In this document: positions 2,604-31,548 of the stretch, piece after piece
Layout: each line of letters begins with the position of its first letter
How positions within the stretch are numbered: the first letter of the stretch is position 1
IMG/VR virus record: IMGVR_UViG_3300042261_000652
Coordinates: 64,001 to 120,796 of that record
Origin: a virus
Strand: one strand, 5' to 3'
Length of the DNA stretch: 56,796 nucleotides
Position numbers and translations under genes: made by a program
Notes under the pieces: model-generated
Told to the model about the DNA's origin: nothing
The model's database searches: none
What the model saw: the letters and a program-made list of their open reading frames with translations, nothing else

Positions 2604-3251
2604 ATGCATAAAGACAAAAGCAATCTGGATATAGTACGCTCATATCTTAGCGGAGAAAGACCGTGGGTCCAAATTGGATATACGGGAAAAAAGTATACCA
2701 AACGCAATGTAGGAGATCGGTGGACGGATAATCGGGGGATAGAGTGGGAACAGAAAGTGGGCGGACCTACCAGAGTCAATAAAATGGCTGAAGCTATTCG
2801 AGAGGCCCGAGGAAAGGACGTATGCAAAAAGTGTCAAAAAGAGATGCGATGGGGAGATAAAACTGATCAACTCTTCTTCCGCAAAACAGGACTTTGCACC
2901 GATTGTCTTATAACTTATGAAACTAATTTGCGAATACTCGGAATCCATTCCGAATATGAGACCATGAAATTGGCTTCCAATGAAATGGGGTTTTTAAAAG
3001 ATGCACGAGATAAAATTTCCGAAACCCTGAATTTCTTTCAACAGGATGGTGGCGATGTTACTATGATATGCAACTCGGAGGGATTTGTAGAACGGTGGAA
3101 AAATACCAATAGAGAGCAAATCATAGAAGATGCCAAGCGAGATTTGAAATTGATCAAAAAGTACATTGCGAATCTTTCCAAACTTAAAAATAAGTGTAAA
3201 AAGATATATGTAGAAAATGCCAAAAAATACAATTTAGAAATTTATGTCTAA
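2604..3251 (+). CDS. Hypothetical Zn-ribbon protein (215 aa); positional candidate for small terminase subunit
   Basis: Lies immediately upstream of the large terminase and overlaps it by 8 nt; CxxC...CxxC ('CKKCQKE...CTDC'); no direct sequence recognition. Confidence 0.4.
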   Translation: MHKDKSNLDIVRSYLSGERPWVQIGYTGKKYTKRNVGDRWTDNRGIEWEQKVGGPTRVNKMAEAIREARGKDVCKKCQKEMRWGDKTDQLFFRKTGLCTDCLITYETNLRILGIHSEYETMKLASNEMGFLKDARDKISETLNFFQQDGGDVTMICNSEGFVERWKNTNREQIIEDAKRDLKLIKKYIANLSKLKNKCKKIYVENAKKYNLEIYV

Positions 3252-6200
3252 CAAGCCGCAGCTTTCCTATCAAGAGTTGATCAAGCAAGAATATACAAAG
3301 TGCTTGGAATCTCCGGTGTATTTTATGAAATATTACGCCAAGATTCAACATCCAGTTCGGGGAACGATTTTATTTAATTTATATAAGTTTCAAGAAGAAA
3401 CTCTTCAGGAGTTTCACGATTATAAGTTTAATATTATTTTAAAATCTCGTCAGATGGGCATTTCTACTCTTGTTGCTGTATATTCGCTGTGGCTGATGAT
3501 TTTCCATAAGGACAAGAATATTCTGCTGATTTCATTAAAACAGGATGATGCGAAGGAAGTTATCGGCAAGGTTAGATTCGCAAATGAAAATCTCCCCACG
3601 TGGCTTAAAGTAAAATGTCTTGAGGACAATAGATTATCACTCAAATTTGCAAATGGATCTCAAATTAAAGCCGCATCAACTACAAAGAAGTCTGGAGTAG
3701 GACACGCTTTAAGTTTATTAATAATAGATGAGGCGGGGCTAATCGATGAAGCGGATGAATTGTGGACTTCGGCACAGCCGACGCTATCAACCGGAGGATC
3801 GTCGATTGTATTATCTTGCGTAACCAAAGATACAATGGTAATAACATCGAAAGGAATAAAAGAAATCGGATCATTTGTAGATAAATCGAAAATTGGCGGA
3901 TATGAAATAGATAAATATAACGTGATGGGAGTCGATGGCATAAGATGTGGAAACTTATTTCACAACAACGGAAAACAGAAAACAAACATTTTAAAAACAA
4001 AGTTTTCGTCCATCGAATGCACCGATAATCATAAGGTGTGGGCGTATAAGCAAAGTACAAAAAGATATGATTGGTATGAGTCATCTCAATTGGAAGTAGG
4101 TGATTTTTTATCACTTCAATATGGGCAAAAAATGTGGGGAAATAATGATGATATATCATCATTTACGCCGTCGATATCGCCCAAGATACATTCTCCATAT
4201 CATCCAAAAAATATTAGTATAGAAATGGCGTATTTACTTGGATTGTATATTGCTGAAGGAAGTGTATACAAAGTCGTAGACAAAAATGATAACTTTGTGG
4301 GAGGAATTCTAACTATCACGTGTGGAGACAATATTTCGTGGGTATTTGATAAGCTTAATTTGACATATAGTTGTCTGGATGGATTACATTATACTATATC
4401 AAATAAAAATTTTATTGAGTTGATGGAATATTTAGGATTTGACGTATCGGTAAAGGCAAATCAAAAATATATTCCTCCTCGATTAATGGAGATGTCTGGC
4501 GACAATATTAAATGGTTATTACGTGGTATTTTTGATGGAGATGGGTGCAGCACAAAAAAAGCCGTAAAACTTACATCTACATCTTGCAAGTTAATAAAAC
4601 AAGTTCGGATGTTGCTTCATAATTTTGGTATTCTCGGAAGTATAGTATCGGAAACGAAAGACAGTTTGAATTCGAGAAATGGAAAAATAAAACATAATCA
4701 TGATTCGCACAATTTAGAAATTTGTGGACGCTATATGATTGATTTTTTCAATCGAGTTGGGTTTGGATTAGAACGAAAACAAACACTCCGGCCACCCATA
4801 GTAAAAATGAATGTTGGTCGTGCATGTAGTAAAGATGTCATTCCCGATTCATTGGAATTGGTTAAGGAAATAGTCCAGGCAACCGGAATGACGTATACCG
4901 AAATAAATAAGCGATGCAATATTCAAGTCAATGGCTACTGTAGTCCGACCAAGTATAAGAGCAATAATATATCTCGGCAAAATGTTATTACATTGTATGC
5001 TATGTTTTATGGATTATTATCAGCCGAAACACAAATTTACTGGAATAATATAATAAAATCCGACGTCGTGTGGTGTGAAATTACGTCCATCGAACATTCG
5101 GAAAATGAAACGTTTGACTTTTCTCTTCCTGAAAATAGTGATGATTTTTGGTGTCATTCTATCATTTATAATGGAATTATTGGGCACCAAACTCCAAGAG
5201 GAGTTGGTAATTGGTTTCATAGAATGTGGCAAAGTGCAGAAGAAGATAATGGCAAAAAGGTAGGAAAGAATGGATTTCACCCTATTAAATTGCCTTGGAA
5301 TTTACACCCCGAACGAACCGAGGAGTGGAGGCGAGTAGAAGGTGAAAAAATAGGAAGTTCTAAAAAAGCTGCGCAAGAATTTGACTGCGACTTTTTAGCA
5401 TCGGGTGACAACGTTGTAGAATTGTCCATCGTAGAATTCTATAAAAAGAATATACAAAAAGATCCCACGGATATTCGTGGAGCAGATCGTGGCTTATGGG
5501 TATGGCAATATCCTGATTATACCCAGACATATTTATTGTCCGCAGATACCGCTCGTGGCGATGGTAGCGATTTTTCGGCAGCACACGTTATTAATGCGAC
5601 GACATTGGAACAATGTGCCGAATATAAGGGACAGTTAGGAACCAAGGATTTTGGAAATTTGCTGGTGGCGCTTGGAACGGAATATAATAACGCATTGCTT
5701 ATTCCCGAGCGGGAAAATGTTGGATGGGCGACAATTCAGGCAATTATAGATAGAAACTATCCAAACTTGTTTTATATGACTAAGGATCTAAAATATGTAG
5801 ATCCGGACACGCAATTTTCAAACAATTACTATTCGGAAGATAAAAAGGCAGTACCGGGATTCACGACAAATATAAAAACCCGTCCCATCATTATTTCTCA
5901 GTTAGAATTATATTTCAGAGAAAAAGCAATACGAATATATTCTAAAAGAACTATCGCCGAGCTTGAAACATTTATTTGGGAAAATGGTAAAGCCCAAGCT
6001 ATGAAGGGATATAACGACGATTTAATATTATCGCTTGGGATTGGACTGTGGGTTAGAGATACCGCCCTGCGGTTACGACAAGAGGGAATAGATATAACAA
6101 AAGCATCTTTAAATCATTTGTCTATGAATAAAATGGATCAGACGCCATTTTATAAGACACAAACGGCTCAGCGTGGACGAGAACAGTGGACTATGAAGAC

Positions 6201-6258
6201 GGGAAGGCAGGGAATCGGACAACACAATACGGAAGATCTGAACTGGTTAATACGCTAA
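3244..6258 (+). CDS. Terminase large subunit (T4 gp17-like), interrupted by an intein
   Basis: Walker A 'KSRQMGIST', Walker B 'LLIIDEAG', then insertion starting 'CVTKDT'; resumes with gp17-like 'IIGHQTPRGVGNWFHRMW' (T4: TTPNGLNHFY). The 1004-aa length exceeds a normal ~600-aa terminase by the intein size. Confidence 0.85.
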   Translation: MSNKPQLSYQELIKQEYTKCLESPVYFMKYYAKIQHPVRGTILFNLYKFQEETLQEFHDYKFNIILKSRQMGISTLVAVYSLWLMIFHKDKNILLISLKQDDAKEVIGKVRFANENLPTWLKVKCLEDNRLSLKFANGSQIKAASTTKKSGVGHALSLLIIDEAGLIDEADELWTSAQPTLSTGGSSIVLSCVTKDTMVITSKGIKEIGSFVDKSKIGGYEIDKYNVMGVDGIRCGNLFHNNGKQKTNILKTKFSSIECTDNHKVWAYKQSTKRYDWYESSQLEVGDFLSLQYGQKMWGNNDDISSFTPSISPKIHSPYHPKNISIEMAYLLGLYIAEGSVYKVVDKNDNFVGGILTITCGDNISWVFDKLNLTYSCLDGLHYTISNKNFIELMEYLGFDVSVKANQKYIPPRLMEMSGDNIKWLLRGIFDGDGCSTKKAVKLTSTSCKLIKQVRMLLHNFGILGSIVSETKDSLNSRNGKIKHNHDSHNLEICGRYMIDFFNRVGFGLERKQTLRPPIVKMNVGRACSKDVIPDSLELVKEIVQATGMTYTEINKRCNIQVNGYCSPTKYKSNNISRQNVITLYAMFYGLLSAETQIYWNNIIKSDVVWCEITSIEHSENETFDFSLPENSDDFWCHSIIYNGIIGHQTPRGVGNWFHRMWQSAEEDNGKKVGKNGFHPIKLPWNLHPERTEEWRRVEGEKIGSSKKAAQEFDCDFLASGDNVVELSIVEFYKKNIQKDPTDIRGADRGLWVWQYPDYTQTYLLSADTARGDGSDFSAAHVINATTLEQCAEYKGQLGTKDFGNLLVALGTEYNNALLIPERENVGWATIQAIIDRNYPNLFYMTKDLKYVDPDTQFSNNYYSEDKKAVPGFTTNIKTRPIIISQLELYFREKAIRIYSKRTIAELETFIWENGKAQAMKGYNDDLILSLGIGLWVRDTALRLRQEGIDITKASLNHLSMNKMDQTPFYKTQTAQRGREQWTMKTGRQGIGQHNTEDLNWLIR
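3817..5172 (+). mobile_element. Intein with LAGLIDADG homing-endonuclease domain inside the terminase ATPase domain (C-terminal junction approximate)
   Basis: Begins with Cys (tgc 3817) right after Walker B. Two LAGLIDADG-type motifs 'LLGLYIAEGSV' and 'LLRGIFDGDGC'; block F/G-like 'VVWCEITSIEHSENETFDF...FWCHSIIYN' ending in Asn. Exact C-terminal splice junction could not be fixed (next residue Gly). Confidence 0.55.
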
Positions 6259-6321
6259 TAACAGGTTTTTCAAAAATATTTATATGGATGATGTGTTATA
6301 TAACACAAATAAGAACAAAAT

Positions 6322-9300
6322 ATGCCAAACCAAACACAAATTAAGCCATTTGACGATCAGATTTTAGACGTTAAAAAGCAATCGCTGTATGCGAGATTGA
6401 AGAGATTATTCTCTACCGATGTTATTGTACGTAACGTAGGCGGCAAACAGCTTAAAATAAAAGATACCGATAATATTATGTACGCAACGGATAGAAATTC
6501 GTTGCGTGACAGATTTAATCGTATTCGCTCGACTGCATATAATGCATACACACGTGATTTTGCGATGTCATATCAAGCGGCACGGATGGATTTATTTCGT
6601 GACTATGATTGTGTGGGACCAGATACCATTATTCCATTACCGGATGGATCACGACCTACCATTGCAGAACTGGCCGAGAAATATAAAAATAATCCACAGG
6701 AAAGATTCTGGGTTTTTTCCTATGATCACGAAACCGATTCCATAAAACTTGGGAAAGCATATCATCCAAGGAAAAAGAAAGGCGTCCGCCAAGGTTATAA
6801 AATAACTTTTGATAATGGACAATCTATAATCGGAAGTTTGAAACATCCATTTTTAATGCGGGATGGAAGCAAAAAACGCCTTTTCGAATTGCGTGTTGGA
6901 GATTCTGTAATGCCTTTCTACGAAAAAGAATACGGATATAATAAACATGGATTTAAACGCTATCGTAGGTTATATAACTTTTCGAGAGGATGGCAGCAAG
7001 AGCATAAAATAGTCGCCGAGCAGTTTTATAGACCACTTGAAAAAAATGAAGTGATTCATCATAAAAACTTCAACGGGTCGGATAACACGCCCGAAAATCT
7101 TGAAATAATGGATTGGAAAGAGCATAAACGATTTCATTCCGACCACAACAAAAATGTATTATGGGGCGAGAAAAACTATAAAAATCAACTCCATAAGTTG
7201 AAGTCTCATCCAAATTATGTTAACCGGGCGGTTCATCATTGGAATGGAGAACGTGTCGGGTCGAGTAATCCATTTTATGGAAAACAACATACTATTGAAT
7301 CTAATGAGAAAAGATCAAAATCCTTAAAAGAAGCATTTATTAATAAAGATCAAACAGGAAAAAAGAATCCAAACTATAGAGATGATGTTACGTTTGATAA
7401 TGTAAAACAAAAAGCATTTGAATATTATAAAGAATATTCAAAAATAAACATATGGGATTTTATTAAACACATTCATTGCGATCATTCTACCCTTCAAAAT
7501 CGACTAAAAAAAGAAGGACATAACTGGAAATCTTTTAAACGAGAAGTTGAAAACACTTTAAATCATAAAATAATATCAATCGAGAGCGTTGGAGAGGTTG
7601 AGGTTTATGACGTTACAGTTGAAAAATATGAAAATTTTGCTACGGATAGTTGTATAGTCGGAAACACGATGGACATGGACCCCATAATGTGTTCAGCATT
7701 AGATATTTACGCAGATGAATGCTTGACCTACAATGAAGTAGGTAAAATGATAACAGTCCACTCGAATAATAATAACGTAAAACGAATTCTTGAGAATTTA
7801 TTCGATGAAATCTTAAATGTTAGATTTAATCTATGGTCGTGGGTGAGAAATATGTGTAAATATGGAGATTTCTATCTTAAATTATATATTACTCCCGAGT
7901 ATGGGATTTATATGGTAGAGCCAATTTCCGCATATAATGTTGAACGGATTGAGAATTCTGACCCCTCTAATAAGCGATATGTTAAATTTCAAATTCGTCC
8001 TACAGATACAACACAATCAGAGGTTCTCGAAAATTATGAAGTGGCGCATTTTCGTCTAATTAATGATAGTAATTTCTTGCCGTACGGTAAGAGTTTAATA
8101 GAAGGAGCTAGACGAGTTTGGAAGCAACTATCTCTGATGGAAGATGCTATGCTTATCCATCGCATTATGCGTGCTCCCGAAAAGCGAATTTTTTATACTG
8201 ATATTGGAAATATTCCGCCAAATGAAGTCGATGCTTATATGCAAAAAATGATGGATAAAATGAAGAAAATTCCATACATGGATGAGCAATCGGGCGATTA
8301 TAATTTGAGATTTAATCTTCAAAATATGGTGGAGGATTATTATATTCCAGTTCGTGGCGGTGACAGCGGAACAAAGATTGATACTCTTGGTGGTATGGAA
8401 TGGACTGGAACTGAAGATATAGAATATCTTCGCAATAAATTGATGTCTGCGCTCAAAATTCCCAAAGCATTTTTAGGATATGAAGAGGGAATTAGCGGAA
8501 AGGCGACCTTGGCATCGGAAGATGTTAGGTTTGCTCGCACAATTCAACGATTACAATGTATTATTGCATCGGAATTAGGCAAAATTGCCACCGTTCATTT
8601 ATATGCTCAGGGATATAGAGACGAGTCTCTTGTGGATTTTGAATTAGAATTAACCAATCCATCAACCATATTTGAGAAAGAAAAGGTTGAAATATGGTCT
8701 GATAAGGTTGCGGTTGCTACAGATATGGTGGAAAATAAGTTTTTCTCGTATAAGTGGGCTTATAAGAACATCTTCAATATGTCGGAGGATGATATCGAGA
8801 AAGTTAGAGAAGAAATCGTCGAGGATGCCAAACAAAGGTATAGATTCGCATCTATTGAAGAAGATGGGGATGATCCTGCCAAGCCGTTTAAGAAGATTGG
8901 GGGCAAAGGTGGCGATGACGAAGATGGCGACAAAGATATCGGAGATCTCGGCGGTGGTGGAGGTCTTGGGGGTGGAATGCATAGCAGTGGCGGTCTCGGA
9001 GGTTCAGACTTGGAAGATATGGATAAATTTGGAGAAGACGGCCCGGGTTTAGACGATTTGGCGGACATAGAGGGTGGCAATGAAGAAGGAGAAGGGGATG
9101 AAGACAAGGAAACGGAAGATGAAACGGGTCCAGAAAAGTCTAAAAATATAAAAGAATATGCAGATCCGGCCAAGGACCGAGATCAAAGTGGTGAACACGA
9201 TGCTCGTAGAGATCATCCTATGGCAGAAGATCCGCTCGGACAAGATGCCATGAATGCCAATACAAAGACAAATAGTGAACGTAAAAAGAAAAGTGCAATT

Positions 9301-9501
9301 GCCCATAATTATGAGGGGGGAAGTCCATTGAGCCGATTGCATGAACGAAATAAGCCCGTAGTTGATGGGGCTATGATCAAAAGTTTATCCGAATTTTTAA
9401 ATAAAACAGGAAAGAATATAAAAACGGAGCTTTTAAATGAAATTATAAGGGACAATCCGAATAATAAATCTATGATGGATGAGTCCAACATTTTAGAATA
9501 A
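6322..9501 (+). CDS. Portal protein (T4 gp20-like) with an intein and a long acidic/Gly-rich C-terminal extension
   Basis: Extein resumes with the gp20-like 'DPIMCSALDIYADE' motif; insertion begins 'CVGPDTIIPLPDG' (Hint block A); gene sits directly after the terminase. Confidence 0.8.
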   Translation: MPNQTQIKPFDDQILDVKKQSLYARLKRLFSTDVIVRNVGGKQLKIKDTDNIMYATDRNSLRDRFNRIRSTAYNAYTRDFAMSYQAARMDLFRDYDCVGPDTIIPLPDGSRPTIAELAEKYKNNPQERFWVFSYDHETDSIKLGKAYHPRKKKGVRQGYKITFDNGQSIIGSLKHPFLMRDGSKKRLFELRVGDSVMPFYEKEYGYNKHGFKRYRRLYNFSRGWQQEHKIVAEQFYRPLEKNEVIHHKNFNGSDNTPENLEIMDWKEHKRFHSDHNKNVLWGEKNYKNQLHKLKSHPNYVNRAVHHWNGERVGSSNPFYGKQHTIESNEKRSKSLKEAFINKDQTGKKNPNYRDDVTFDNVKQKAFEYYKEYSKINIWDFIKHIHCDHSTLQNRLKKEGHNWKSFKREVENTLNHKIISIESVGEVEVYDVTVEKYENFATDSCIVGNTMDMDPIMCSALDIYADECLTYNEVGKMITVHSNNNNVKRILENLFDEILNVRFNLWSWVRNMCKYGDFYLKLYITPEYGIYMVEPISAYNVERIENSDPSNKRYVKFQIRPTDTTQSEVLENYEVAHFRLINDSNFLPYGKSLIEGARRVWKQLSLMEDAMLIHRIMRAPEKRIFYTDIGNIPPNEVDAYMQKMMDKMKKIPYMDEQSGDYNLRFNLQNMVEDYYIPVRGGDSGTKIDTLGGMEWTGTEDIEYLRNKLMSALKIPKAFLGYEEGISGKATLASEDVRFARTIQRLQCIIASELGKIATVHLYAQGYRDESLVDFELELTNPSTIFEKEKVEIWSDKVAVATDMVENKFFSYKWAYKNIFNMSEDDIEKVREEIVEDAKQRYRFASIEEDGDDPAKPFKKIGGKGGDDEDGDKDIGDLGGGGGLGGGMHSSGGLGGSDLEDMDKFGEDGPGLDDLADIEGGNEEGEGDEDKETEDETGPEKSKNIKEYADPAKDRDQSGEHDARRDHPMAEDPLGQDAMNANTKTNSERKKKSAIAHNYEGGSPLSRLHERNKPVVDGAMIKSLSEFLNKTGKNIKTELLNEIIRDNPNNKSMMDESNILE
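6610..7665 (+). mobile_element. Intein in the portal gene carrying an HNH endonuclease domain
   Basis: Starts with Cys (tgt 6610) after 'FRDYD'. HNH-like 'HHKNFNGSDNTPENLEIMDWKEHKRFHSDHN'; block F/G 'VYDVTVEKYENFATDSCIVGN' followed by Thr; the flanks rejoin to a gp20-like sequence. Confidence 0.6.
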
Positions 9502-13015: not shown

Positions 13016-14749
13016 ATGAATAACGAAAATAAAAAACTTTTGATGGAATGTATTACATTCGAAGCCGATCCACGGCTGCTTAAAGAATCTAGCGATCATC
13101 CAAATCAGCCATTCCGAGTGAGTGGAATTTTACAACGCAAAGGTAAAAAAAACCAAAATGGCCGTATTTACCCCGATGAAATTCTAATGCGTGAAGCTGA
13201 AAAATATTCAAACGTTTTCATAAAAGATAGACGGGCGATGGGTGAATTAGATCATCCGGAATGTAAAAGAGTTGGAACTGAGATACTTACGAAAGATGGA
13301 TGGAAAGATTTGCGTGATGTTAAAATCGGAGATATAATTCCGACGTTAAATACCACAACAGATACGTTGGAATATAATCCAATCGAACGAGTGATCAACG
13401 AACCATATAATGGTAAAATGATATCTATCATTGGAAAAAATATAGATACATTGGTTACTCCAAACCACAGATTTATTTTAAAAGATAGAAATGGAAAATT
13501 TCTGGAAAAAACCGCACGAGAAATGTTGGATATATCGAAAATAAATAAGAATCCACATTTATCAATTCCAGTTGTAGTTAATAATTGGAATGGATTTGCA
13601 TATGATGTATATAAAATAGATGCCATTCCAACAGAAGAAATATTAAAACACGCATCTTTAGAATTTGGAATTAAACAAACCACGACATTAAATTTAGATG
13701 CATCTGCATGGTTTTCATTTTTAGGATTTTATTTGGCCGAAGGACATTGTGATAATAGAGAAACTCAAAGCGGCTATGGAGTATACATCTCTCAAAACAA
13801 AGGAGAACTCGCCGATAAATTCCGAGAAATTCTATCACAATTAAGTCCAGAATTACAGTGGCACGAAAATGATAAGGGAGAAAACGCCATCATTTTTACG
13901 ACATATGATGCTCGTTTATGGACATATTTATCTAAATTGGGAAATCAATATACAAAATATATTCCCGATGATATAAAATTGGCATCTGTAGATTTACTTC
14001 AAAATTTATATGACTGGTATTTGAATGGAGATGGAACAGTTGTAGGAGAATATGATAGATCTTCCATATGTTCCGTATCCAAACAGTTAATGGAAGACTT
14101 TTACGAAGTAATATTAAAATTGGGAATGACCGGAGTTATTAAAGAACAAGTATCAAAGGATGATTATATGTTCGCCGGAAGATTAATAGAAATTAAAAAT
14201 AAAGTTCCATTGTATAGATTGTGGATTAAAACTGCGAAAGAGGTTTATCTAGATTTTCGATTTATAAAAATTGAAGAAGTCGATTACAATGATACCGTTC
14301 ATTGTGTGACTGTAAAGAACGGAACGTTTTATTGCCGGGATAGAAATAAAGCATTCTGGACTGGAAACTCCTCGGTGGTTAATTTAAAAAATGTCTCCCA
14401 CAATGTTATAGAAATGCATTGGCAGGGAGATGACTTGGTGGGCACAGTAGAAGTTCTCACAACTCCAAATGGAAATATTTTGCGGGAATTATTCAGAAAC
14501 GGAATTAAGTTGGGCATTTCAAGTCGTGGACTTGGAAGTTTAAAGAAAATTTCAGAAAGTTCGGCCATTGTGGGCGATGACTTTGAACTTATTGCGTTTG
14601 ATTTCGTTTCAAATCCCAGCACACAGGGGGCTTTTATGGCACCCCAAGGGCAAGTGGCATTATCAGAAGGCATTATAAAAAATCCAATGACTAATAAATG
14701 GGAACGCACTGACGATATCATTAGAAATATTCTCTCAGAATTGGGTTAA
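13016..14749 (+). CDS. Prohead protease (T4 gp21-like) interrupted by an intein
   Basis: 'GELDHPE' then insertion; extein resumes 'SSVVNLKNVSHNVIEMHWQGDDLVGT...GISSRGLGSL', matching recalled gp21 'GELNHP...MWWKGNDVYG...SSRGLGS'. Extein length is ~208 aa against 212 aa for gp21. Confidence 0.75.
   Translation: MNNENKKLLMECITFEADPRLLKESSDHPNQPFRVSGILQRKGKKNQNGRIYPDEILMREAEKYSNVFIKDRRAMGELDHPECKRVGTEILTKDGWKDLRDVKIGDIIPTLNTTTDTLEYNPIERVINEPYNGKMISIIGKNIDTLVTPNHRFILKDRNGKFLEKTAREMLDISKINKNPHLSIPVVVNNWNGFAYDVYKIDAIPTEEILKHASLEFGIKQTTTLNLDASAWFSFLGFYLAEGHCDNRETQSGYGVYISQNKGELADKFREILSQLSPELQWHENDKGENAIIFTTYDARLWTYLSKLGNQYTKYIPDDIKLASVDLLQNLYDWYLNGDGTVVGEYDRSSICSVSKQLMEDFYEVILKLGMTGVIKEQVSKDDYMFAGRLIEIKNKVPLYRLWIKTAKEVYLDFRFIKIEEVDYNDTVHCVTVKNGTFYCRDRNKAFWTGNSSVVNLKNVSHNVIEMHWQGDDLVGTVEVLTTPNGNILRELFRNGIKLGISSRGLGSLKKISESSAIVGDDFELIAFDFVSNPSTQGAFMAPQGQVALSEGIIKNPMTNKWERTDDIIRNILSELG
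13262..14368 (+). mobile_element. Intein with LAGLIDADG endonuclease domain inside the prohead protease
   Basis: Starts with Cys (tgt 13262) after 'DHPE'. LAGLIDADG motifs 'FLGFYLAEGHC' and 'LYDWYLNGDGT'; block F/G 'VHCVTVKNGTFYCRD...AFWTGN' followed by Ser. Confidence 0.6.
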
Positions 14750-14802: not shown

Positions 14803-16491
14803 ATGAATGATGCAATCATCAAATGGATAGCGGATAATTTGCAATATTTTCGTGGATTAATTTGCAAAAAATGCAAGCGAGAATGGTTTGAAAAGTATGG
14901 ATTCTTAGATAAATGGCAAGAAATACACGATATTACGTTATTTCTCGATGCATTAAATCCAACATTTCCTCAGCGAGTATGGCATATTGTCCATGATCAT
15001 TTGTCGACAATAAAATGCGCCAATCCTTCCTGTCAAAACTCTCCAAAATTCTGGTCTTTTAATATTGGATATTTGAGAACTTGTTCTACATCTTGTGCTC
15101 AATATGACCCACTTACTCAAGAAAAAATACAAATCACCAATCTCGATAAATATGGTTATAAATATGGGTTGCAGAATCCGGATATAATTAAGCGAAGAAT
15201 ATCTTCCATTCGAGAAAAATATGGCGTAAATAATATTTCACAAGTCGATGGCATATCGGAAAAGAAACAAGAAACGTGTTTAAAAAATTATGGAACGAAA
15301 TGGTTTTTGGAAAGAAGTGATATTGTTAGAGAATGTTTGGTGAGAAAGTACGGAGTAGAAAATGTTCAACAAGTTGACGAAATATCATCAAAAACATCTC
15401 AAACCAGAACAAATAATTTTTATGATGAATTAGTCGGGTCGGACAGATTTAAAGGAAAAGTAGTTCCATCATTTTCCAAGGAAGAATATGATGGAGTGGG
15501 AAAAGAATATAAATTTAAATGTACGTCGTGCTTTTCTGAATTCTCCTATGTTTTACGGTGGGACCGCATTCCGAGATGCCCCATTTGTTTCAAAGGATCA
15601 TCCATATTTGAACAAGAAATTACAAATTATATCAAAACGCTATTGCCTGCGACTGATATAATGGAAAATGTGAAGTCGATCTTATCCAACAATAGAGAGT
15701 TGGATATTTATATTCCATCTAAAAATTTGGCGATTGAGTGCAATGGATTATTTTGGCACGGGGAAGTTGGAGGAAATAAAAATAGAAATTATCATTTAAA
15801 TAAGACAATTGAATGTGAATCTAAAAATATCCATTTAATTCATATTTTCGAAGATGAGTGGATTTTGTCTCCGGATATTATTAAAAACAGATTGGCCCAC
15901 ATAATGGGATTACACAAAGTTGCCAAATCCATATATGCCAGAAATTGTGAAATAAAAGAAGTATCAAATAAAGATAAAAATAATTTTCTTAATGCCAATC
16001 ATATTCAAGGAACCGATAGAAGTAAAATACGATTGGGATTATTTTATAATAATGATATGGTCGCAGTTATGACATTTGGAAGTAGGCGAATATTTACCAA
16101 TTCTGTCTATATTGAAAATGAGTATGAACTTATACGATATGCCACTTCTATTCCAGTTGTGGGCGGAGGAAGTAAGCTGATGACGCATTTTATAAAAACA
16201 TATTCGCCAAAGAAAATTATCTCGTATGCGGATAGGCGATGGACTTATTATAAAAATAATTTATATGAGCGGATTGGGTTTAAAAAAGTATCAGATGGAA
16301 CACCCAACTATTGGTATTTTGGTCGTCAAGGAAATTATCGTAGATTTCATCGATTTGGATTTGCAAAACATACTTTATCTAAGCGATTGGCCTTTTTTGA
16401 TCCGAGTCTCACGGAATGGGAGAATATGAAAAATAATGGATGGGACAGGATTTGGGATTGTGGAAGTTTAAAGTATGAAATGGCATTTTAA
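14803..16491 (+). CDS. Zn-finger protein with KYGVxNxxQVD tandem repeats and a Vsr/DUF559-like PD-(D/E)xK endonuclease domain; candidate free-standing homing endonuclease
   Basis: 'CKKCKREW', 'CANPSCQN...CSTSC'. Repeats 'REKYGVNNISQVDGISEKK / LKNYGTKWFLERSD / VRKYGVENVQQVDEISSK'. Nuclease core 'ELDIYIPSKNLAIECNGLFWHGE' matches the Vsr/DUF559 pattern (VDF...AIEvDG.FWHg). Confidence 0.6.
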   Translation: MNDAIIKWIADNLQYFRGLICKKCKREWFEKYGFLDKWQEIHDITLFLDALNPTFPQRVWHIVHDHLSTIKCANPSCQNSPKFWSFNIGYLRTCSTSCAQYDPLTQEKIQITNLDKYGYKYGLQNPDIIKRRISSIREKYGVNNISQVDGISEKKQETCLKNYGTKWFLERSDIVRECLVRKYGVENVQQVDEISSKTSQTRTNNFYDELVGSDRFKGKVVPSFSKEEYDGVGKEYKFKCTSCFSEFSYVLRWDRIPRCPICFKGSSIFEQEITNYIKTLLPATDIMENVKSILSNNRELDIYIPSKNLAIECNGLFWHGEVGGNKNRNYHLNKTIECESKNIHLIHIFEDEWILSPDIIKNRLAHIMGLHKVAKSIYARNCEIKEVSNKDKNNFLNANHIQGTDRSKIRLGLFYNNDMVAVMTFGSRRIFTNSVYIENEYELIRYATSIPVVGGGSKLMTHFIKTYSPKKIISYADRRWTYYKNNLYERIGFKKVSDGTPNYWYFGRQGNYRRFHRFGFAKHTLSKRLAFFDPSLTEWENMKNNGWDRIWDCGSLKYEMAF

Positions 16492-27790: not shown

Positions 27791-29566
27791 ATGCAACAAG
27801 TAAAAGAACTATTAACTGATGCTTTGAACCCTCAAGCACGTCTCATGGCTGAGACTCGTGGACTTGTCTCCAAGTGGGATAGGACAGGATTGCTCGAAGG
27901 ATTGAAGAATGATATTGACAAGTCGAATATGTCGGTATTGCTTGAAAACCAAGCAAAACAACTGATTGAAGAATCATCCGTGACCGGAACTCAGGCTAAC
28001 TCTGAGCAATGGGCGGGTGTTGCTCTTCCATTGGTTCGCCGTGTGTTCGCCGAAATCGCTGCTAAGGAATTCGTATCCGTCCAGCCAATGAACCTTCCTG
28101 CGGGATTGGTGTTCTATCTGGACTTCAAATATGGATCAACCTCGGGCGTATTTAGTGCCGATTCATCTACTAACTACTCATCGCTGTTCGGTGGAATTAG
28201 CCAGAGTTTGAATCTTGGTGGAACTACCATCAGTGATCCAAATAACCAGTGGAAACTTGGTTCGACCAATTACCCTGCTGGTGGTCTCTATGGCCCCGGT
28301 CGCAATGCTTATACTGTAAATGATAATCTTTGTGCAACCCAGTCCGTCGCAGTTGGTACGGCATCCCTCGCCGATATTAATTTCGATACTGGCAACGCAA
28401 ATGACCCGATCAATAGCAGTATTTCCGCATCTCTCGCCGCAGGCACATTGTTCACCCTCACCACCGTTGGGTTAACAACAAACTGCAACACTCAGTTTGG
28501 ATCATATCCTGATCTCAACAACGTCCGTACGTTTATGCCCGTAACGACCCCTGCGTCGTCTTCGGCAGCATTCGTAACGTGGTTCCCGGGTTTCACCCGC
28601 TTTAGCGGAACTGAAGCCGTGTTCGTTGTGTCATCCTCAGCGGCTAATGCACAAACCTTGGCCAATGGCGCAAATCAGAGTGGTATTATCCACGTCAATT
28701 TGAGCGTCCAGCCGAAGGATACTGCTCGTGGTGACTTCGAAGATCGCCTCGGCAAGTCCACTACGGATACCGGTCTTAATAAAGATATCGGAATTCCCGA
28801 AGTTAACCTCGAGATGCGCTCCGAGCCTATCGTAGCCAAGACTCGTAAATTGAAATCAGTATGGACTCCAGAACTCGCTCAGGATCTCAACGCCTACCAC
28901 TCGGTTGACGCTGAAGCTGAGTTGACCGCTCTTCTGTCCGAATATGTGTCAATGGAAATCGATCTCGAAATCCTTGACATGCTTATCGTCAATGCCCCCA
29001 ACATCAACAAGGAGCGTTGGAGCGCACGCCTCAACCGTGAAATCCTCAAGACTGGTACCAACAGCTACCAAGTAGTGGATCAAGTAACGGCTGGCGCAGG
29101 TGGATATTACACCAAGTCAACTTGGTATCAGACTCTTGGTAACAAGATTCAGAAAGTATCCAATAAGATTCACCAATTGACCCTCCGTGGTGGTGCAAAC
29201 TTCATGGTGGTCGGTCCCGATGTGGCAACAATCCTGGAGTCAATCCCCGGATTCGTAGTCAACACCGACGGTGACTCCGCCAAATTCGCAATGGGCGTTT
29301 CTCGTGTTGGTAGCTTCGCAAGTCGCTTCCAAGTCTACAAGAACCCATATATGCAAGAGAATCTAATTCTCATGGGATTCCGTGGAAATAACTTCCTCGA
29401 AACTGGCGCAGTATATGCTCCATACATTCCACTTATCCAGACCCCATTAGTATATGATCCTGTCAATTTCACCCCAAGACGTGGTGTTATGACGAGGTAT
29501 GCTAAGAAGATAGTCAGACCCGAGTTTTATGGGCTGATCTACGTATCTGATACAAATCAGGTCTAA
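27791..29566 (+). CDS. Major capsid protein (T4 gp23-like)
   Basis: 'WAGVALPLVRRVFAEIAAKEFVSVQPMNLPAGLVFYLDFKYG' aligns with recalled gp23 'WQPVLMGMVRRAIPNLIAFDICGVQPMNSPTGQVFALRAVYG'; N-terminal propeptide with L-x-E sites (e.g. 'KQLIEE'); strong terminator downstream. Confidence 0.8.
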   Translation: MQQVKELLTDALNPQARLMAETRGLVSKWDRTGLLEGLKNDIDKSNMSVLLENQAKQLIEESSVTGTQANSEQWAGVALPLVRRVFAEIAAKEFVSVQPMNLPAGLVFYLDFKYGSTSGVFSADSSTNYSSLFGGISQSLNLGGTTISDPNNQWKLGSTNYPAGGLYGPGRNAYTVNDNLCATQSVAVGTASLADINFDTGNANDPINSSISASLAAGTLFTLTTVGLTTNCNTQFGSYPDLNNVRTFMPVTTPASSSAAFVTWFPGFTRFSGTEAVFVVSSSAANAQTLANGANQSGIIHVNLSVQPKDTARGDFEDRLGKSTTDTGLNKDIGIPEVNLEMRSEPIVAKTRKLKSVWTPELAQDLNAYHSVDAEAELTALLSEYVSMEIDLEILDMLIVNAPNINKERWSARLNREILKTGTNSYQVVDQVTAGAGGYYTKSTWYQTLGNKIQKVSNKIHQLTLRGGANFMVVGPDVATILESIPGFVVNTDGDSAKFAMGVSRVGSFASRFQVYKNPYMQENLILMGFRGNNFLETGAVYAPYIPLIQTPLVYDPVNFTPRRGVMTRYAKKIVRPEFYGLIYVSDTNQV

Positions 29567-29712: not shown

Positions 29713-31548
29713 ATGACGATAAATCAAAACGAAATAACCATAACTGAAGAAGAGTCTAAATGTTGCAAATTATGTAACAAGATATTTAATTCTGGAAGAT
29801 TAATGATTTGGCATGTCAAGAAAGAACATAAACTCGATTTTAAAAATTATATTTTACAAGTTTATTATGGCGGAATTAACCCAATATGTCAAAAAACTGG
29901 AAAAAATGTGACTTTTAAGGCACATAAACTCGGACCTTGGTTTAGTAATTATTCAAAAAACAATTTCCCACGTTCTCCCCATTCCGCAGAATCCAAAGAG
30001 AAAATTAGAATTGGATGTGAAAATGCCGCTCTTAAAAAATTTGGAGTAAAAAATGTATTTCAATCTGAGTGGTGCAAACTCAAGATTAAATCTACTATTA
30101 GAGAAAAATATGGAGTAGATAATCCAATGCAGGTGGATGATTTCAAAAAGAAAATGATAAATGCCTTTTTTGAAACTATAAAAAATAGACCAATTAAAGT
30201 TTATCCTTGTAAAAATATAGACCCTAATCGGCCATCAACACTAGAATTAGATTTTGCATCTAAGTTAACAAAGAATAATATTCACTTTATAACTCCATTT
30301 GTATATGATGGATATAGGTTTGATTTTTACATACCAGCTATAAATTCTATAATTGAGATAGACGGGGAAACATTTCACAAAAATAATTTGGAATCATTGA
30401 CTTTAATGACCATAAACGGAAGTAGAAATGATTACAATAAAAATATTATGATAGATGATTCGCTATATAATTTTTATAGAATTAGATATAACCCCGCCGA
30501 TTTTAATTTTGATGATATTATTTCATTAGAATCGATTATACATAACACAAAATATTATCCCAACTATGGAATTAAATACAAACAGAAAATTGTTAATAAA
30601 GAATATTTTGCGAGATATATAGCAAACAAAGGAAAGGATAAATTGCAAAAATATTCTCCATTGATTCTCAAATTCATTCGTACGTTTCAGCCAGAATTTC
30701 CATATCCCGATCTTGAGGAACAATTATTCGATGTTATTGGTAAATTACATAATACAAATATATCGAAAGTATATAATGATAATGCAAAAGAGTTTTCGAA
30801 TAATATATCAACGGCGGGCCACAATTATTTAAAACATCATTTCAAATCATATTGGAAGAGTAAATTTAAGGGAACATTATCCCCAGTCGAGGCATGGAAA
30901 GATGATAAAATAATGCAAGAAGTTATCGATTATCGAATTGGATGTAATAATAGCGGGGAAGTATTCGACTTTAGTTTACATCAATTAGTCAGAGGATTAT
31001 CAGCCCGAAGAATTGGGGTGTCATTTTTTAAACCGCTACTTGCGGCGGCAATATATAAGATCATATTGGGAAATATGCCCAATCCGGTTGTATTGGACCC
31101 TTGCTGTGGATTTGGGGGAAGATTATTGGGGTTTAAATCCATATATCCAAATGGGACATATGTTGGATGTGAGCCTAATGTAGAAACATACAATGAATTA
31201 TTACAACTAGTTAAAAATGCCGGATGGAACAATGTTGAAATACATAATTGTAAGTTCGAGAATTTCAATGATAAAAATCGGCATAAATTTGATTTAATAT
31301 TTACAAGTATTCCATATTTTGATATTGAAGAGTATAGTAATAATACAACATATCCTTCATTTGATGATTGGAAAAATACATTTATTTCTGCTATTGAAAA
31401 ACACGGAGGGACGGGCTGTTATATTAATGCTCCGTCGGAACTGTGTGAAAAATTAAAATGGGTAAACGTGGCATACACAATCAAATCAAATCGGAGTCAT
31501 TTTGATAAACGAGCCGGGACGAAAAAAGAATTGATTGTTAAGTTATAA
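29713..31548 (+). CDS. Multidomain protein: C2H2-like Zn finger, KYGVxN repeats, Vsr/DUF559-like nuclease core, C-terminal amino-DNA-methyltransferase domain
   Basis: 'CCKLCNKIFNSGRLMIWHVKKEHK'; 'LKKFGVKNVFQSEW...REKYGVDNPMQVDDFKKK'; 'YRFDFYIPAINSIIEIDGETFHKNN'; methyltransferase motif I 'VLDPCCGFGGR' and motif IV 'FTSIPYFD'. Confidence 0.6.
   Translation: MTINQNEITITEEESKCCKLCNKIFNSGRLMIWHVKKEHKLDFKNYILQVYYGGINPICQKTGKNVTFKAHKLGPWFSNYSKNNFPRSPHSAESKEKIRIGCENAALKKFGVKNVFQSEWCKLKIKSTIREKYGVDNPMQVDDFKKKMINAFFETIKNRPIKVYPCKNIDPNRPSTLELDFASKLTKNNIHFITPFVYDGYRFDFYIPAINSIIEIDGETFHKNNLESLTLMTINGSRNDYNKNIMIDDSLYNFYRIRYNPADFNFDDIISLESIIHNTKYYPNYGIKYKQKIVNKEYFARYIANKGKDKLQKYSPLILKFIRTFQPEFPYPDLEEQLFDVIGKLHNTNISKVYNDNAKEFSNNISTAGHNYLKHHFKSYWKSKFKGTLSPVEAWKDDKIMQEVIDYRIGCNNSGEVFDFSLHQLVRGLSARRIGVSFFKPLLAAAIYKIILGNMPNPVVLDPCCGFGGRLLGFKSIYPNGTYVGCEPNVETYNELLQLVKNAGWNNVEIHNCKFENFNDKNRHKFDLIFTSIPYFDIEEYSNNTTYPSFDDWKNTFISAIEKHGGTGCYINAPSELCEKLKWVNVAYTIKSNRSHFDKRAGTKKELIVKL

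Follow-up and report, generated by a model that had tools for sequence, protein, structure and literature searches.

In actinobacteriophages, no protein hosts inteins more often than the large terminase (TerL) (PMC5050341). Kelley et al. (2016) described an insertion point in the C-motif of Terminase_6-type TerLs, designated TerL6-f, and such an intein splices efficiently in E. coli (PMC5050341). They argue that splicing is required to complete the TerL active site and to assemble the pentamer (PMC5050341). Inteins that end in Gln or Asp follow the same splicing pathway, via cyclisation of the Gln or Asp (PMC4031507). Gln cyclisation is slow in the PolII inteins of Pyrococcus abyssi (Pab) and Methanoculleus marisnigri (Mma), and the ribonucleotide reductase (RNR) intein of Chilo iridescent virus (CIV) loses splicing efficiency when its native Gln is replaced by Asn (PMC4031507). 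In this study we analyzed a TerL gene in a 56,796-nucleotide stretch of viral DNA, positions 64,001 to 120,796 of the IMG/VR record IMGVR_UViG_3300042261_000652 (the whole stretch is hereafter the window). Nucleotides 3817-5190 of the window very likely encode a class 1 intein in which a double-motif LAGLIDADG homing endonuclease is nested. The intein lies between Ser191 and Thr650 of the TerL C-motif. Its last residue is Gln, and this terminal Gln is the prevailing state of the lineage to which it belongs.

The TerL gene is organized as follows.

3244..6258, + strand: large terminase (TerL, T4 gp17-like) precursor gene, 1004 aa with the intein (list of open reading frames (ORFs), Pfam Terminase_6N, gp17 match)
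3244..3816, + strand: N-extein, aa 1-191, whose last residue, Ser191, is the first half of the C-motif (motifs; alignments with gp17 and intein-free orthologs)
3442-3468, + strand: Walker A 'KSRQMGIST' in the N-extein
3715-3732, + strand: Walker B 'LLIIDE' in the N-extein
3817..5190, + strand: intein, 458 aa (aa 192-649), from Cys1 to His648-Gln649; the stretch missing from ~550-aa orthologs and from the empty-site DNA of L002 and L003
5191..6258, + strand: C-extein (ortholog, gp17 and empty-site alignments)

Pfam placed Terminase_6N at the N-terminus of TerL. The spliced product, predicted to be 546 aa long, matched the T4 gp17 structures 3ezk/3cpe with an E-value of ~1e-35 across aa 12-480. 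In the gp17 register, 'SRQMGIST' falls on Walker A 'SRQLGKTT', 'LLIIDE' on Walker B 'MIYIDE', and 'LS/TP' on 'IITTTPNG' (here and below a slash marks a splice junction or insertion point). Walker A, Walker B with the catalytic Glu, the C-motif and the C-terminal nuclease domain of a T4 gp17-type large terminase (Terminase_6) were thus all found. We take 'TTT' of gp17 to be the ATPase coupling C-motif (motif III). As read from the aligned sequences, the intein splits this motif between Ser191 and Thr650, 28 residues past Walker B Glu163.

An earlier note on this DNA, made from the letters of the sequence, had reported a LAGLIDADG intein in a 1004-aa, gp17-like TerL, within the ATPase domain. 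This was borne out by its absence from orthologs, by the predicted fold with Hint and LAGLIDADG domains and by the conserved splicing blocks. The ORF is found at 3244-6258 (+), with Walker B 'LLIIDEAG' at aa 158-165. The insert opens, as the note said, with Cys192 (nt 3817) straight after '...IVLS', and the two motifs it quoted, 'LLGLYIAEGSV' and 'LLRGIFDGDGC', are present at aa 331-341 and 425-435. Its description of the site as just after Walker B was imprecise, and the site is not the P-loop hot spot that it invoked, since the alignment with gp17 maps it to the C-motif. A P-loop-type TerL intein does exist elsewhere, in Psychrobacillus phage Perkons (GFGK/C...SHN/T).

With the joined flanks of the insert as query, 7088 TerL homologs were found (E<=1e-10). 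Of the best 120, most were 542-554 aa in length, with 70-76% identity and 99-100% query coverage, and intein-less alleles are the large majority of the close TerL orthologs. A blastn search of nt 3000-6500 against deposited phages gave a single 119-bp match (73%), in an unannotated huge-phage record, and there is no close cultured relative.

To fix the junctions, we aligned the complete protein of 1004 aa with two sets of orthologs, 11 free of inteins and 6 longer ones that carry inteins elsewhere. The intein-free orthologs (~550 aa, 72-76% identity) read '...PTLSTGGNAI[IV]LS/TPRG[VI]GNWFHKMW...', with nothing between Ser and Thr. The TerL of the window has one in-frame 458-aa insert precisely at this Ser/Thr, 'CVTKDTMV ... 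FWCHSIIYNGIIGHQ'. The N-junction is ...GGSSIVLS/CVTKD... and the C-junction is ...YNGIIGHQ/TPRGVGNWFH. The same boundaries are seen at the DNA level. A syntenic 311,889-bp phage contig (L002, GCA_040384425.1) has the same gene order and a 549-aa TerL without the intein. Its empty site, ...ATTATTCTTTCG/ACTCCTCGTGGT... in contig JAWVGW010000008.1, aligns on both flanks, 52 of the 72 flanking nucleotides being identical. Since the host sequence resumes at 'TPRGVGNWFH' in both the ortholog and the empty-site alignments, the intein comprises aa 192-649 (nt 3817-5190). Its last codon is CAA (Gln649, 5188-5190), and the +1 residue is Thr650, which is canonical. The terminal Gln649 in place of Asn is a real departure from the intein consensus, in which block G ends in His-Asn. 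Gln is known as a functional replacement at this position (PMC4031507), and the departure does not place the insert outside the class 1 inteins.

The earlier note had given the extent as 3817-5172. The start is right, and the end falls 18 nt, or six residues, short of the true end at 5190. On that reading the intein would end at ...HSIIYN, a Gly would be the +1 residue, and 'GIIGHQ' would belong to the host. The ending 'YN' does superficially resemble an intein end, and Asn643 is highly conserved (135 of 139 family members). However, 'GIIGHQ' occurs in none of the intein-free orthologs, all of which read 'LS/TPRG', and host sequence does not resume at 'GIIGHQTPRG...' as the note had it. Gly has no side-chain nucleophile for transesterification, and splicing at YN/G would leave six surplus residues inside the C-motif. 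Moreover, 'NGxxGHQ' lines up position by position with 'NGFISHN', the canonical block G found in Asn-ended allelic inteins, including that of phage Mic1. The ortholog alignment thus led us to reject the YN/G junction, to which we assign virtually no chance of being correct. The anomalous Gly at +1 vanishes, because intein block G runs to the end of 'GIIGHQ' and +1 is Thr. In the alignment, every residue of 'YNGIIGHQ' has its counterpart in the 'SNGFISHN' of the Asn-ended relatives, and this gives independent support for the corrected C-junction. The note had itself allowed that the boundary might differ by a few residues, and this proved correct; the alignment to intein-free homologs, which it proposed as a check, fixed both junctions at S191/T650. 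For annotation, the true mature terminase that follows from the corrected boundaries has 546 aa and an intact C-motif.

The following parts were assigned within the intein. The per-residue counts, here and below, refer to the 139 full inteins that could be extracted from its relatives.

3817..3819, + strand: block A nucleophile Cys1 (Cys192, TGC); Cys in 139/139 relatives
4021..4032, + strand: block B 'TDNH' (Thr260, His263; aa 260-263); His in 139/139, Thr/Ser in 137/139 relatives
4234..4266, + strand: first LAGLIDADG motif 'LLGLYIAEGSV', predicted catalytic Glu338; similar to I-DmoI, weakly in sequence and clearly in fold
4516..4548, + strand: second LAGLIDADG motif 'LLRGIFDGDGC', predicted catalytic Asp433; within Pfam LAGLIDADG_3, aa 423-504
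5110..5127, + strand: block F 'TFDFSL' with invariant Asp625, followed by conserved His638-Ser639 ('WCHS'); Asp in 139/139, His in 131/139 relatives
5167..5190, + strand: block G 'YNGIIGHQ', penultimate His648 and terminal Gln649 (junction alignments)

The insert thus has Cys1, the T-x-x-H of block B and Thr at +1, and is precisely absent from orthologs, as is expected of a class 1 intein. The Pfam match to LAGLIDADG_3 (aa 423-504) had an E-value of 2.8e-14 and, at 53.6 bits, was above the cut-off of 22.5. We also considered a class 3 intein, at which 'FWCHS' might hint. This was rejected, since Cys1 is invariant and the Cys of that motif varies among the relatives (C 75, A 26, D 10, T 8, others).

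An AlphaFold2 model was calculated from the intein with 10 flanking residues and an alignment of 16 relatives, and was confident, with a pLDDT of 88.5 and a pTM of 0.89. In its secondary structure, a beta-rich N-terminal Hint half is followed by an alpha/beta endonuclease core with two motifs, then by ~100 helical residues, which by analogy are probably DNA-binding, and finally by the C-terminal Hint half. The Hint fold of an intein is thus present in the predicted structure. In a Foldseek search of the PDB, the best matches were endonuclease-bearing inteins. TliVMA (7qss) was the top match (E 1.7e-21, TM-scores 0.66/0.72), and PI-PfuI (1dq3), PI-TkoII (2cw7), PhoVMA (7qst) and PI-SceI (1vde) were also found. 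Over ranks 1-8 the E-values ranged from 1.7e-21 to 5e-11 and the target-normalised TM-scores from 0.46 to 0.72. The central domain of the model matched I-DmoI (E~1e-8). With Glu338 and Asp433 both intact and an I-DmoI-like predicted fold, the insert has the features of a monomeric two-motif LAGLIDADG homing endonuclease.

LAGLIDADG enzymes are found in introns as well as in inteins. The insert might therefore be removed as RNA, being either a group I intron that splices itself or a free-standing endonuclease gene in frame by chance. Neither is at all credible. The insert is in frame and free of stops, halves of a Hint fold with conserved blocks A, B, F and G stand on both sides of the endonuclease, and in essentially every relative Cys opens the insert and Thr comes directly after it. 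Over the whole window (1-56796), no Rfam family, group I introns included, reached the gathering threshold, and with zero Rfam matches the group I intron was rejected; ARAGORN found no tRNA genes in the same interval. The window contrasts in this respect with some other huge phages, the terL genes of which are rich in group I introns (PMC12880540).

Relatives of the intein were then collected in order to see how its unusual end is distributed. A word-indexed search gave 16 relatives, all at the 'S/TP' site and all ending G[H/F]Q. An exhaustive phmmer search of the intein against 1.84 billion cluster representatives gave 2066 matches at E<=0.001 and 158 at E<=1e-30. Given these 158 homologous representatives and the clean presence/absence polymorphism, chance is not an issue. 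The C-junctions of the relatives were located with a small hidden Markov model (HMM), and were readable in 155 proteins. Gln was the last residue in 118 of them (HQ 107, FQ 8, EQ 2, TQ 1), Asn in ~20 and Asp in 2, and Thr, rarely Ser, was at +1 in essentially all. Among the full inteins the last residue is Q in 116, N in 19 and D in 2. Three further positions were counted in the same set.

Penultimate His: 123/139 full inteins
First endonuclease acidic residue retained: 110/139 full inteins
Second endonuclease acidic residue retained: 111/139 full inteins

The endonuclease acidic residues are thus gone in ~20% of the relatives. Together with the invariant splicing residues, this indicates that splicing is under strict selection while the endonuclease comes and goes. 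The copy in the window has both acidic residues, and endonuclease activity is plausible for it.

A neighbour-joining (NJ) tree of the inteins was made without the last two alignment columns. Its outgroup comprises 16 sequences, of which 15 are Asn-ended (type '...SNGFISHN/TP') and one (P0282) is Gln-ended when the junction is read one residue later. The ~120 other inteins form one Gln-ended clade, inside which Asn derivatives (P0143, P0275, P0192, P0183 and P0198) and Asp derivatives (P0194 and P0216) are scattered. The two Asp derivatives end in Tyr-Asp ('KSA[IV]YNGLLIYD/TPKG'), have no penultimate His, and have Lys where block F otherwise has its conserved His.

It is worth considering whether the Gln is a mark of decay. 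Replacement of the terminal Asn might have crippled the third step of splicing, so that the TerL precursor would at most be cleaved, without splicing, and the gene would have no function or be in the course of loss. That the terminal Asn is replaced, and that Gln slows splicing in the Pab and Mma PolII inteins (PMC4031507), would agree with this. On the other hand, terL is essential, no second terminase was seen among the window ORFs of >=150 aa (only some of which are annotated), the frame of 1004 codons is intact, and every other splicing residue is in place. In addition, Gln is kept across ~118 clusters (50% identity level; 30-64% intein identity) in which no change is seen at Cys1, at the His of block B or at the Asp of block F. 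Such retention, with the invariant catalytic residues, points to purifying selection on a working active site and not to decay. The greater efficiency of the CIV RNR intein with native Gln than with Asn (PMC4031507) also speaks against a crippled intein. We therefore consider decay very improbable.

Several points nevertheless weigh against a functional class 1 intein at this site. The Pfam Intein_splicing match, at 26 bits, is under the cut-off of 35.8. A sequence search of the PDB with the intein detected no solved intein and gave marginal I-DmoI matches (E~0.1), for which reason structure prediction was needed to assign the fold. As a consequence of these two results, it is the model, together with the splicing blocks and the insertion polymorphism, that carries the Hint assignment. 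We infer splicing and DNA cleavage from the sequence, the predicted fold and conservation. Since Gln cyclisation is slow in some characterised inteins, the splicing efficiency of the TerL intein may be affected. Finally, the NJ tree is unbootstrapped and midpoint-rooted, and its polarity is therefore provisional.

On the reading of a functional class 1 intein, the following course of events is proposed. TerL would be made as a precursor which should be inactive in packaging, since its C-motif is split by the intein. Cys192 would undergo the N-S acyl shift, and the hydroxyl group of Thr650 would attack the resulting thioester to give a branched ester. Gln649, in place of the usual Asn, would then cyclise with the aid of His648 and release the intein, and an O-N shift would form the Ser191-Thr650 peptide bond and restore '...IVLS-TPRG...'. 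The freed intein may act as a site-specific endonuclease on intein-less terL (target around ...TCG/ACTCC...) in co-infection, and would be copied in by recombinational repair.

A further question is whether the terminal Gln is adaptive and not neutral. It could be tuned to the Ser/Thr context of the C-motif, or it could make branch resolution deliberately slow so that active terminase appears late or conditionally. The Gln has been retained for a long time, with Asn or Asp replacing it only sporadically within the clade, and the CIV RNR intein is a precedent for Gln being better than Asn (PMC4031507). Gating of packaging by TerL inteins has also been proposed (PMC7156551, PMC5050341). However, a change from CAA/CAG to AAT/AAC takes two nucleotide substitutions, and the retention could reflect this mutational distance. 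A Gln that is good enough, combined with compensatory changes such as the Gly at -2 (116 of 139), explains the pattern equally well. Since intein-less orthologs are the majority, the host clearly has no need of the intein. An adaptive Gln therefore seems to us rather unlikely. In the same tentative sense, one could suppose that a TerL C-motif intein lineage of mostly uncultured phages, with at least 116 clusters (50% identity level) and identities down to ~30%, fixed Gln as a kinetic optimum or as a slow or conditional branch resolution that times terminase activation. If this were true, the occasional Asn and Asp derivatives would be natural 'mutants' for dissecting Gln cyclisation, and the lineage would be, to our knowledge and with no survey behind the statement, the largest natural set of Gln-ended inteins.

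The distribution of the intein also bears on its mobility. The P0138 intein is 60% identical to that of the window, whereas the N- and C-exteins of the two proteins are just 42% and 30% identical. The intein is conserved far more strongly than the gene around it, which indicates that it was transferred between terminases that have diverged. The GC content of the window intein is 0.338, compared with 0.377 and 0.401 for the exteins. Unrelated inteins were found in other orthologs at three sites, after residues 182 (P0062), 256 (P0096) and 309 (P0044, P0051, P0083 and P0113) of P0001, and all of them end in canonical His-Asn (HN/T or HN/C). One of these sites is just 9 residues upstream of the window site ('PALS/C...VNHN/TGG'), and another lies in the nuclease domain ('YIV/C...THN/CADVARGDG'). 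With the site in the window, the TerL family has at least four intein insertion points. The intein-less majority, the inteins at other sites, the P0138 comparison and the difference in GC content are all consistent with horizontal spread by homing.

Split inteins were also seen in this family. Many TerLs with an allelic Gln-ended intein (P0122-P0125, P0127, P0129, P0130, P0132, P0133, P0135 and P0136) end ~20-30 residues past a '...QE/C' junction. At L004 6001-9422 (JGI 3300075147, a 301-kb contig), the next ORF begins with an intein C-part of ~113 aa ('...VVSHN/CDTSF') fused to the nuclease half of TerL. This is the arrangement of the atypical split inteins with a short N-fragment of the GOS-TerL/AceL-TerL kind (PMC2677866, PMC11766414), here in the same gene as the Gln intein. 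The TerL of the window is uninterrupted at that site ('AAQEFDCDF'). Split inteins of the AceL-TerL/GOS-TerL type, found in the same genes of the relatives, already serve as labelling tools.

The window, which comes from a 75-kb Logan contig of run SRR35144456, is as a whole a T4-like structural module, relatives of which are on contigs of 300-380 kb. Two further inteins, the second of them putative, were located in it.

6610-7665, + strand: portal intein, 352 aa (aa 97-448), in the gp20-like portal ORF 6322-9501
13262-14368, + strand: putative intein of ~369 aa in the prohead core protease (Peptidase_S77), in ORF 13016-14749; boundaries from sequence and Pfam only

The portal intein extends from 'FRDYD/CVGPDTII...' to '...DSCIVGN/TMDMDP'. 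An HNH endonuclease (Pfam HNH_3) is nested in it, and its penultimate residue is Gly, not His. The related 312-kb contig L002 encodes a portal of 686 aa from which precisely this intein is missing. The GC content of the intein is 0.342 against 0.387 for the portal exteins. The putative protease intein extends from 'GELDHPE/CKRVGTEIL...' to '...KAFWTGN/SSVVNL' and carries the LAGLIDADG motifs 'FLGFYLAEGH' and 'YLNGDGT'. The major capsid protein (27791-29566) was examined as well, and no intein was seen in it. Inteins are thus present in TerL, portal and prohead protease within 12 kb, and a close relative is without those in TerL and portal. This three-gene cluster would be a good natural system for the study of homing between co-infecting large phages.

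Two other features of the module were observed. The 3' part of the portal ORF (~8700-9300) has a GC content of 0.46-0.49 and a strong positive GC skew, and encodes a Gly/Asp/Glu-rich low-complexity tail, 'GGKGGDDEDGDKDIGDLGGGGGLGGG...EGEGDEDKETEDE'; the portal tail of L002 is shorter and divergent. DUF7487 is common to two ORFs on the + strand, 14803-16491 (562 aa) and 29713-31548 (611 aa), the second of which has an additional weak methyltransferase match under the Pfam cut-offs.

Both Gln-ended inteins, which are a rare variant, and C-motif TerL inteins have already been described, and Gln as the norm of a lineage is a modest addition that does not overturn current understanding. A tblastn search of the intein against 50,697 deposited phage genomes gave no relative above 25% identity. 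In a literature search we found nothing specific on phage inteins with a C-terminal Gln and no description of a Gln-ended TerL intein lineage. A lineage in which Gln is the norm and Asn and Asp variants are nested offers a comparative series for step 3 of protein splicing, and may yield new splicing parts for protein engineering.

Among known systems, the large TerL intein of Microcystis phage Mic1 (MN013189; PMC7156551) has the same insertion point, ...G/C...N/TPKGYG, before the C-motif Thr of 'TP.G'. It shares Cys1, the +1 Thr and a nested homing endonuclease with the window intein, and homology is detectable (tblastn E 6e-15). It differs in its low identity (~22%) and canonical 'SHN' end, and belongs to the Asn-ended type which is the outgroup in the NJ tree. 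Its host is a siphovirus TerL with a second mini-intein in the nuclease domain. The mycobacteriophage TerL6-f inteins (e.g. Chandler gp6; PMC5050341) likewise interrupt the ATPase coupling C-motif of a Terminase_6-type TerL, a likeness based on the published description. Their hosts, however, are actinobacteriophages, and a C-terminal Gln is not mentioned in PMC5050341.

In predicted fold, the window intein resembles TliVMA (7qss), PI-PfuI (1dq3), PI-TkoII (2cw7) and PI-SceI (1vde), in which a Hint domain is split by a two-motif LAGLIDADG endonuclease and an extra helical region. The identity to these solved archaeal and yeast inteins is 11-16%, their hosts are a VMA ATPase, RNR and polymerase, and the window side of the comparison is a predicted model. 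The Pyrococcus abyssi and Methanoculleus marisnigri PolII inteins and the Chilo iridescent virus RNR intein (PMC4031507) share a block G that ends in Gln, with Gln cyclisation in the class 1 pathway. They differ in host protein, site and lineage, and the PolII inteins are without an endonuclease. These are isolated cases of a terminal Gln, whereas the Gln of the window intein is fixed across a large phage-borne lineage.

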